Positions 25,754 through 47,856 of a stretch of 64,000 bases of DNA are shown piece by piece; the first letter of the stretch is position 1, and each line of letters opens with the position of its first letter. The translations under genes and the position numbers were made by a program. The DNA is from Escherichia coli (GTDB lineage: Bacteria > Pseudomonadota > Gammaproteobacteria > Enterobacterales > Enterobacteriaceae): NCBI RefSeq assembly GCF_024223415.1, contig NZ_CP100500.1; one strand, written 5' to 3'. Below the pieces are notes generated by a model that worked only from the letters and a program-made list of their open reading frames with translations, ran no database searches and was not told where the DNA came from.

Positions 25754-25815
25754 GTGCGCCACGCAGCGACGATGAGCGATAAACAAGTTCTTCGAAGCAC
25801 TCGTAAGAGGCGTGT

Positions 25816-25908
25816 GGTGAGGTGGCCGAGAGGCTGAAGGCGCTCCCCTGCTAAGGGAGTATGCGGTCAAAAGCTGCATCCGGGGTTCGAATCCCCGCCT
25901 CACCGCCA
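25816..25908 (+). tRNA. serV: tRNA-Ser (anticodon GCU)
   Basis: 93-nt cloverleaf with long variable arm; acceptor GGTGAGG/CCTCACC; anticodon loop ctGCTaa; genomic CCA. Confidence 0.95.
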
Positions 25909-25911
25909 TTT

Positions 25912-25988
25912 GCATCCGTAGCTCAGCTGGATAGAGTACTCGGCTACGAACCGAGCGGTCGGAGGTTCGAATCCTCCCGGATGCACCA
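25912..25988 (+). tRNA. argV: tRNA-Arg (anticodon ACG), copy 1
   Basis: 77 nt gcatccgtagctcagctggatagagtactcggctACGaaccgag...ggatgcacca. Confidence 0.95.
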
Positions 25989-26123
25989 TATTCTCCGTAA
26001 CCTTCAGCGATGAAGGTATGGAAGAGGTGGCGGTACTAACCGCAGGCACCAGGGAGGATAACGTTGCTTTAGCAACGGCCCGAAGGGCGAGCCGCAAGGC
26101 GAGTAATCCTCCCGGATGCACCA
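25989..26123 (+). repeat. structured 135-nt inter-tRNA element ending in a 19-nt tRNA-Arg 3-prime remnant
   Basis: Several short hairpins (ccttcagcgatgaagg, cgttgctttagcaacg); terminal aatcctcccggatgcacca at 26105-26123 matches the tRNA-Arg T-arm/acceptor 3-prime end; near-identical copy at 26404-26536. Confidence 0.8.
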
Positions 26124-26187
26124 TCTCTTACTTGATACAGCTTTAGTAGCGGTATCAAAAAATCTGCAGTAAAGTAAGTTTCCCGAT

Positions 26188-26264
26188 GCATCCGTAGCTC
26201 AGCTGGATAGAGTACTCGGCTACGAACCGAGCGGTCGGAGGTTCGAATCCTCCCGGATGCACCA
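26188..26264 (+). tRNA. tRNA-Arg (anticodon ACG), copy 2
   Basis: 77 nt, identical to copy 1. Confidence 0.95.
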
Positions 26265-26326
26265 TCTCTTACTTGATATGGCTTTAGTAGCGATATCAAT
26301 ATCAGCAGTAAAATAAATTTCCCAAT

Positions 26327-26403
26327 GCATCCGTAGCTCAGCTGGATAGAGTACTCGGCTACGAACCGAGCGGTCGGAGGTTCGAATCCTCCCGGATGCA
26401 CCA
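26327..26403 (+). tRNA. tRNA-Arg (anticodon ACG), copy 3
   Basis: 77 nt, identical to copy 1; only 62-nt spacer from copy 2. Confidence 0.95.
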
Positions 26404-29312: not shown

Positions 29313-29385
29313 AAAAAGGCCACTCGTGAGTGGCCAAAATTTCATCTCTGAATTCAGGGATGATGATAACAAATGCGCGTCTTTC
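29313..29385 (-). ncRNA. micA: MicA (SraD) small RNA
   Basis: Reverse complement reads gaaagacgcgcatttgttatcatcatccctgaattcagagatgaaattttggccactcacgagtggccttttt, with terminator hairpin ggccactcacgagtggcc plus U-run. Confidence 0.95.
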
Positions 29386-35978: not shown

Positions 35979-36060
<82 letters not shown>

Positions 36061-46682: not shown

Positions 46683-46982
46683 TTACGGACAATAGACATT
46701 TTTCAGGGTGGCGATAATGGCATTTACCGCCTCATTTTTAATGGAATATAGAATGCGTTGGGTATCCCGTTGGCTGTCGATAAGCCCTTCGTCCCGCATA
46801 CGGGCGAGATGCTGTGATGTCGCAGAGGCACTCAGTCCGGTAATGCGCGTCAGCTCTCCCGCGCTGGTGCCGGGGGAACCGCTAAGCATGCACAGAATCA
46901 GCAACCGTTTAGGGTGGCTCATTGCTTTCAATAAGGCCGCTGCCTGTTCGGCACTGGCCTGTAATTGCGCGAGTTCAGTCAT
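46683..46982 (-). CDS. ygaV: ArsR/SmtB-family transcriptional regulator YgaV
   Basis: 99 aa; wHTH. Confidence 0.88.
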   Translation of the reverse strand: MTELAQLQASAEQAAALLKAMSHPKRLLILCMLSGSPGTSAGELTRITGLSASATSQHLARMRDEGLIDSQRDTQRILYSIKNEAVNAIIATLKNVYCP

Positions 46983-47164
46983 ATTTATTTAAGCATTTCC
47001 TAAATTAAGTAAACTCTAAACTAAAAATGCAACATATACCAGCCTCAGCAGCGTAAATGAGAGTAAAAGCGTAAGCTGAAACTGGCAGCCTCCGCTAAAA
47101 TTACTACGCTTAAGAGATAAAATCTCTTTTTAAACAATGAGTAATTTTCTTATAGGGAGTACAT

Positions 47165-47323
47165 ATGGGTTTCTGGAGAATCGTCATCACCATCATTCTG
47201 CCGCCGCTCGGCGTGCTGCTCGGTAAAGGGTTCGGTTGGGCGTTCATTATTAATATTCTGCTGACACTGCTTGGGTATATCCCCGGTTTGATTCACGCGT
47301 TCTGGGTGCAAACCCGCGATTAA
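47165..47323 (+). CDS. yqaE: Pmp3/UPF0057-family small membrane protein YqaE (52 aa)
   Basis: ATG at 47165 after GGGAG RBS; MGFWRIVITIILPPLGVLLGKGFGWAFIINILLTLLGYIPGLIHAFWVQTRD; below the ORF-track length cutoff. Confidence 0.85.
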   Translation: MGFWRIVITIILPPLGVLLGKGFGWAFIINILLTLLGYIPGLIHAFWVQTRD

Positions 47324-47406
47324 ACCTGTGCTCACCCCCGCGGCGTTAACGCGCCGCGTTCCTCTGCTACACTTTCTGAGTGTTTCCGTTAACGAATGAG
47401 GTAGCT

Positions 47407-47856
47407 ATGGGTCTGTTCAATTTTGTGAAAGATGCCGGAGAAAAACTCTGGGACGCGGTTACAGGTCAGCACGATAAAGACGATCAGGCGAAGAAGGTGC
47501 AGGAGCATCTGAGCAAAACCGGTATACCTGATGCCGATAAAGTGAACATTCAAATTGCCGACGGCAAAGCGACGGTCACTGGTGACGGTCTGAGTCAGGA
47601 GGCGAAAGAGAAAATCCTTGTTGCGGTGGGGAATATTTCCGGCATTGCCAGTGTTGATGATCAGGTGAAAACGGCGACACCAGCCACTGCCAGCCAGTTT
47701 TATACCGTTAAGTCTGGCGATACTCTGAGTGCCATTTCCAAACAGGTCTACGGTAACGCTAATCTGTACAATAAAATCTTCGAAGCGAATAAACCGATGC
47801 TAAAAAGCCCGGATAAAATTTATCCGGGGCAAGTGTTGCGTATTCCAGAAGAGTAG
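47407..47856 (+). CDS. kbp: potassium-binding BON/LysM domain protein Kbp (YgaU)
   Basis: ORF 47380..47856; start at [14 protein letters not shown] gives 149 aa; C-terminal LysM ([14 protein letters not shown]). Confidence 0.9.

Follow-up and report, generated by a model that had tools for sequence, protein, structure and literature searches.

The 52-codon open reading frame (ORF) lying between ygaV and kbp is the already annotated and studied Escherichia coli gene yqaE, and as a gene it is nothing new. It was analyzed here within a 64,000-nucleotide stretch of E. coli DNA (contig NZ_CP100500.1), referred to as the window. We are highly confident in the overall account, in which yqaE is a monocistronic gene for a two-helix inner-membrane protein of the Pmp3/RCI2 type that would be switched on by CpxR, repressed by the small RNA CyaR, and involved in tuning cation balance or membrane potential.

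Identity and annotation of the ORF

The frame opens with an ATG at 47165 and runs through 52 sense codons to a TAA at 47321-47323, with a GGGAG Shine-Dalgarno (SD) core ending 5 nt upstream of the start codon. In the RefSeq annotation of strain EC1515, the CDS with identical coordinates is yqaE (WP_000508177.1, YqaE/Pmp3 family membrane protein). Between the end of ygaV and the start of kbp lie 425 nt over which EC1515 and the window are 100% identical. Of 5426 complete E. coli genomes, 5417 carry this stretch, on the chromosome every time, with "yqaE: YqaE/Pmp3 family membrane protein" as the annotated feature beneath the match. Farther out, the region is bordered by stpA and ygaP upstream and by csiR and gabP downstream. 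Coordinates of all features discussed are collected in Table 1.

Table 1 Features at and around yqaE, with positions in the window and the basis for each assignment
Feature	Position	Strand	Basis
ygaV, ArsR/SmtB regulator, divergent to yqaE	46683..46982	-	RefSeq
CpxR-type direct repeat GTAAA-N5-GTAAA, perfect	47053..47067	+	98-112 nt upstream of ATG
Alternative -10-like TAAAAT	47096..47101	+	Sequence
Candidate sigma-70 promoter TTAAGA-17-AACAAT	47110..47138	+	Published prediction located in window
Antisense 61-aa GTG ORF, shadow of yqaE, not a gene	47150..47335	-	ORF listing
Predicted CyaR pairing region, SD (UAGGGAG) and codons 2-4 (GGUUUCUGG)	47153..47176	+	Complement of CyaR nt 35-52
yqaE Shine-Dalgarno AGGGAG (GGGAG core)	47154..47159	+	Read from sequence
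yqaE CDS	47165..47323	+	ORF read; RefSeq CDS; Pfam; purifying selection; AlphaFold2 model
Candidate GC-rich hairpin GCGGCGUU-AACG-CGCCGCGU	about 47339..47358	+	Fold; 16 nt past stop codon
kbp (formerly ygaU)	47407..47856	+	RefSeq
39-aa "hypothetical protein", WP_001120794.1	61283..61402	+	RefSeq; between recombinase gene fragment and ypjA

Comparison with E. coli K-12 MG1655 places the window gene as the orthologue of YqaE (b2666; UPF0057): the 52-aa protein is identical, its accession is the one also found in EC1515, and the order ygaV / yqaE / kbp is the same. The K-12 allele is a single synonymous base apart from that of the window (Leu33, CTG in the window and TTG in K-12), and four more single-base differences all fall in flanking non-coding DNA. 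A more distant allele was seen in SCPM-O-B-8794, a genome labelled E. coli, where 16 synonymous differences (dS about 0.6), the same level as in E. albertii, separate the gene from that of the window and leave the protein identical; this strain may represent a divergent Escherichia lineage.

An earlier note, made from the sequence alone, had described this ORF as ATG-initiated, 52 codons long, preceded by a ribosome-binding site (RBS) and placed between ygaV and ygaU, and had assigned its product to the Pmp3 family as a two-helix hydrophobic peptide. All of these points agree with the coordinates above and with the family match and structural model given below. The same note called the gene absent from the ORF track and did not identify it as yqaE. 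The absence is correct insofar as yqaE was unlisted, because the first ORF list stopped at 60 codons, but the gene is named and present both in RefSeq and in the literature, where its mRNA, promoter, small RNA control and mutant phenotypes have already been published (PMC5861431, PMC7145675, PMC11575346, PMC7835403). Given this regulatory literature and an annotation in essentially every E. coli genome, the discovery value of the ORF is low.

Coding evidence and conservation of yqaE

The length of the ORF is not significant by itself, because the few hundred bases around it contain several random ORFs of 45-61 aa, and the case for a gene rests on other evidence. A Pfam search matched the product to PF01679 (Pmp3, "proteolipid membrane potential modulator") at 69.3 bits, above the gathering threshold of 22.9 (E=2.7e-19); YqaE residues 3-48 align to model positions 2-47 of 49 (46/49 positions). 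A scan of YqaE against NCBIfam gave no matching model. For codon-level comparison, loci from 46 enterobacterial species were assembled with the window sequence as reference. The plus-strand yqaE frame is open in all 46 and any other frame in at most 21, while differences from the window, summed over the loci, are distributed 368:32:1249 over codon positions 1, 2 and 3. Wherever dS was unsaturated, dN/dS was between 0.02 and 0.08 (Nei-Gojobori). The ATG start is conserved in every locus (46/46), as is a GGAG or GAGG at -15 to -4. A homologue scan using one genome per species produced 442 confirmed relatives, of which the best 80 were retained; beyond the enterobacteria, it found homologues at 57-70% identity in Pseudomonas, Rhodobacteraceae, cyanobacteria and others. 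yqaE is a real, coding and conserved gene and a member of the Pmp3 family.

Two other readings of the interval were weighed against these data. The 61-aa antisense ORF is the sole ORF of at least 60 aa over the interval, and hence what a 60-aa track displays; were it the true gene, the yqaE frame would be its shadow. However, the antisense frame is interrupted by internal stops in 31 of the 46 orthologous loci in which the yqaE frame stays open, the substitution pattern fits the plus-strand frame only, the best Pfam hit of the antisense product does not rise above noise (E=0.19), and RefSeq carries no annotation for it. On the comparative data we reject it as a gene, giving the idea essentially no credence, and regard it as a shadow ORF. 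Alternatively, the plus-strand ORF could be a chance open frame in a non-coding region, such as an untranslated 5' leader of kbp. Frames of about 50 codons are indeed common by chance in this region, and the hairpin past the stop codon is without a clean U-tract, leaving read-through into kbp conceivable. Protein-level conservation nevertheless rules out an untranslated chance ORF: the strength of the PF01679 match, the low dN/dS, the start codon and SD conserved in 46 species and the distant homologues all speak against it, and E. albertii, C. youngae and Enterobacter have yqaE without kbp at the locus. We consider a chance frame every bit as improbable as a gene on the opposite strand, and the interval is treated as yqaE throughout.

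Sequence and structure analysis of YqaE

The yqaE product (MGFWRIVITIILPPLGVLLGKGFGWAFIINILLTLLGYIPGLIHAFWVQTRD) is 52 aa long and, at a GRAVY of +1.22, strongly hydrophobic; GKG parts its two hydrophobic stretches, and hydropathy peaks at about residues 4-20 and 22-43. AlphaFold2 was supplied with an alignment of YqaE homologues, comprising 40 diverse sequences at 52-96% identity from enterobacteria, Pseudomonas, Rhodobacteraceae, cyanobacteria, Rubrobacter and others. The resulting model (mean pLDDT 89.7) is a two-helix hairpin, with a three-residue turn between the helices at residues 2-21 and 25-50. In size and topology (52 aa, two hydrophobic helices, short loop), YqaE corresponds to the tail-less type of Pmp3 protein, which is about 50-60 aa long. 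Across the 40 homologues, 16 positions are invariant (R5, P13, P14, G16, V17, G22, F27, N30, L33, T34, L36, G37, Y38, P40, G41 and H44), among them the residues of the PP and GY.PG motifs. Residues 7-22, VITIILPPLGVLLGKG, also fit the UPF0057 signature, PROSITE PS01309, which we take to be [LIVF]-x-[STAC]-[LIVF](3)-P-P-[LIVAM]-[GA]-[IV]-x(4)-[GKN]; this is a weak test. YqaE has been termed an inner-membrane protein (PMC11575346).

A Foldseek search of the AlphaFold2 model against the PDB gave nothing significant, returning non-significant matches to helical hairpins (best E=7.3), an uninformative and expected outcome because a 52-residue hairpin is so small. At the sequence level, the sole solved structure with detectable similarity to YqaE is PscF/Ric1 (PDB 7ueb_F, 8gwa), a small subunit in the reaction centre of Chloracidobacterium thermophilum, with E=1.3e-3 in a single-sequence search and 1.9e-7 in a profile search over residues 1-51. 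Both proteins have the PP and G(Y/W)IPG motifs in common. They differ in setting, PscF/Ric1 being a subunit of a photosynthetic complex from an unrelated phylum, whereas E. coli is without such a complex.

Genomic context and transcriptional control of yqaE

The order ygaV-yqaE-kbp is confined to some Escherichia, Salmonella and Citrobacter. In the E. albertii and C. youngae loci, kbp is missing downstream of yqaE and csiR follows directly; in two Enterobacter loci, the order is stpA-yqaE-LysR-type regulator. Neighbours likewise differ in Enterobacter, Klebsiella, Hafnia and Serratia. Synteny was therefore set aside as a functional clue, as the order is limited to part of three genera and yields no obligatory partner gene. 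With neighbours this variable across species, yqaE behaves as a self-contained single-gene unit with its own promoter box.

That box is the perfect CpxR-type direct repeat upstream of the gene. The 64-kb window contains this one exact match, against a chance expectation of 0.14. Among the 46 enterobacterial loci, an exact box lies 90-118 nt 5' of the ATG in 31, compared to one at any other place in the 281 kb scanned of these loci, and it is retained also in loci with different flanking genes. A CpxR site and footprint have been annotated at yqaEp (bioRxiv 10.1101/2025.05.13.653802), and the repeat in the window is probably this published CpxR activator site. For membership in the Cpx regulon, the window supplies the box and the literature supplies the induction: yqaE is induced by the TisB toxin and listed among CpxR-dependent genes (PMC11575346), and it rises 8- to 17-fold, along with cpxP and spy, upon treatment with a LolCDE inhibitor (PMC5105897).

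Shimada et al. (2014) predicted the yqaE promoter hexamers TTAAGA / AACAAT (PMC3946193), which were located in the window as a candidate sigma-70 promoter. If the alternative TAAAAT served as the -10 element, the CpxR box would lie at a more usual distance from the transcription start. A consensus promoter scan at yqaE called neither candidate, and the lack of a strong sigma-70 promoter in its output is in keeping with a promoter that depends on an activator. Downstream of the gene, the candidate GC-rich hairpin is without a clean U-tract and was not called by a terminator scan; it could be a weak terminator or a 3' stabiliser of the mRNA. The one terminator-like hit of the scan falls inside the yqaE coding sequence and was dismissed as chance, given its intragenic position.

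Post-transcriptional control by CyaR

yqaE is accepted in the literature as a target of CyaR, a CRP-activated and Hfq-dependent small RNA. Pull-down with MS2-CyaR enriched yqaE 70-fold by MAPS, according to PMC5861431, which credits the target to De Lay (2009). Sponging of CyaR by ArcZ raises yqaE mRNA (PMC7213987), and the cAMP-dependent repression of yqaE is gone in a cyaR mutant (bioRxiv 10.64898/2025.12.22.696124); across these three sources, the support also spans RT-qPCR and cAMP dose-response. A short Hfq-bound "yqaE RBS" fragment has additionally been described to build up without PNPase (PMC7145675).

The CyaR sequence used was confirmed both in E. coli genomes and by Rfam (RF00112, 100.7 bits). 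With the terminator-less body of this small RNA, a duplex of -21.1 kcal/mol was predicted over the SD and the first codons after the start; this energy is marginally better than that of shuffled targets (p about 0.04). Unrestricted folding of CyaR with yqaE gave an implausible full-length duplex in which the CyaR terminator was unfolded, and was dropped. The third base of the Gly2 codon, which lies inside the predicted duplex, varies among species. Because of this variation and the narrow advantage over shuffled targets, the exact CyaR-yqaE base pairs are offered as a prediction.

Proposed function of YqaE and related systems

YqaE shares its Pfam family (PF01679), approximate size and two transmembrane helices with yeast Pmp3p and plant RCI2/LTI6, and the PP motif of helix 1 is conserved in all of them. 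Yeast cells with a pmp3 deletion become sensitive to Na+ and to cationic drugs, and the deletion also reportedly hyperpolarises the plasma membrane (Navarre and Goffeau, 2000). Loss of the gene leads to salt-related phenotypes in the Pmp3p/RCI2 systems and in E. coli alike, and complementation across kingdoms has been reported, according to a review (PMC7835403). There, Kwok et al. (2020) are cited for a sensitivity of E. coli lacking YqaE to NaCl deficiency as well as to NaCl excess, and a dinoflagellate RCI2 homologue is stated to complement the NaCl-deficiency phenotype of a yqaE mutant. The same review (PMC7835403) lists differences from the eukaryotic systems: the sensitivity of the E. 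coli mutant to low as well as high NaCl is one, and the response to 200 mM KCl, in which yqaE expression falls while that of yeast PMP3 rises, is another. Control through CpxR and CyaR exists in bacteria only. Deletion of yqaE caused no defect in recovery from TisB (PMC11575346).

Yeast Pmp3 and plant RCI2 as analogues, together with the salt sensitivity reported for the E. coli mutant, make it most likely that YqaE tunes the balance of cations or the membrane potential when cells face envelope or ionic stress. In the mechanism we propose, the Cpx envelope-stress regulator CpxR would switch yqaE on via the GTAAA-N5-GTAAA box about 100 nt upstream, and under conditions that activate cAMP-CRP, Hfq-dependent CyaR would pair across the RBS of yqaE and repress it post-transcriptionally. 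The protein, with its two transmembrane helices and short G-K-G turn, would sit as a hairpin in the inner membrane and adjust cation balance or membrane potential during envelope or ionic stress, probably by forming a small oligomer or by joining a bigger membrane complex as an accessory subunit.

A small hydrophobic peptide whose RBS is repressed by a small RNA also brings to mind a membrane-depolarising type I toxin, for which CyaR would be the antitoxin-like repressor rather than YqaE being a homeostatic protein; yqaE has moreover been studied beside the small toxin TisB as an induced gene. Type I toxins are recognised by a dedicated adjacent or overlapping antisense RNA gene and by toxicity on expression, and no such RNA was found at the yqaE locus: an Rfam scan around yqaE, at E up to 1, returned no riboswitch, leader or antisense RNA. 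CyaR itself is trans-encoded next to yegQ, far from yqaE, has multiple targets and is controlled by CRP, and is no dedicated cis-antisense RNA. In addition, the family occurs throughout bacteria, fungi and plants, yqaE is a single-copy core gene under strong purifying selection, and stress sensitivity arises from loss of yqaE and not from its expression. A toxin function is accordingly unlikely, to the point that we would be very surprised by it, and a homeostatic role in cation balance or membrane potential is preferred.

Small genes and other features of the window

The earlier note had further suggested that other genes below 60 aa could be hidden in intergenic regions, and had called for a systematic small-ORF scan. 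Such a scan was run in simple form over the intergenic DNA of the whole window (15-59 aa, ATG or GTG start, SD core at 4-10 nt spacing). It is crude, in that long ORFs were masked greedily and the conservation test was applied to yqaE and not to the other candidates. Eight ORFs were returned, and yqaE stands alone among them in having an ATG start together with a length above 20 aa, and also in being strongly hydrophobic. Of the others, one is an internal csrA start and the rest are short or GTG-started ORFs near tRNA or island DNA. The scan recovered yqaE but no other convincing gene in the window, leaving a suggestion that is reasonable in general but finds little support here. Besides yqaE, the only RefSeq CDS shorter than 60 aa in the window is the 39-aa hypothetical protein, which lacks both an upstream SD and a Pfam match and is probably island debris or an over-call.

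Rfam matches elsewhere in the window were to the small RNA MicA (RF00078, 83.9 bits; 29314..29385, minus strand), which lies between gshA and luxS and has no entry in the matching strain's RefSeq feature table, and to naRNA4/CssrE (RF02564, 76.4 bits; 35983..36060, minus strand), a REP-derived nucleoid-associated RNA beside proX. The window and EC1515 are collinear around yqaE; elsewhere, indels occur in the tRNA-Ser/Arg cluster after csrA (about 25800..26400), and a difference of about 180 nt precedes tRNA-Ile (ileY) at about 58356. These differences indicate that EC1515 is not the strain of the window but a close relative within E. coli.

Implications for small-gene annotation and the Pmp3 family

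yqaE serves as a calibration case for ORF listing, as a 60-aa cutoff drops a real and deeply conserved gene and displays a spurious antisense ORF in its place. The gene is cleanly recovered once small ORFs are screened for an SD, for a family HMM match and for conservation by codon position. The window provides no new handle on the biochemical role of Pmp3/YqaE proteins. The example of PscF/Ric1 does show that Pmp3-like hairpins can serve large membrane complexes as accessory subunits, and it does not indicate a partner for YqaE. A narrower version of this idea would have YqaE not as a modulator of membrane potential acting by itself but as a Cpx-induced accessory subunit that docks on a specific larger inner-membrane complex, for example a cation transporter, and tunes its activity, much as PscF/Ric1 sits in the photosynthetic reaction centre; we consider it a doubtful though conceivable proposal. 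If it were true, the adjacency of yqaE to kbp in Escherichia, Salmonella and Citrobacter, kbp encoding a K+-binding protein, would hint at a module for K+/Na+ homeostasis.
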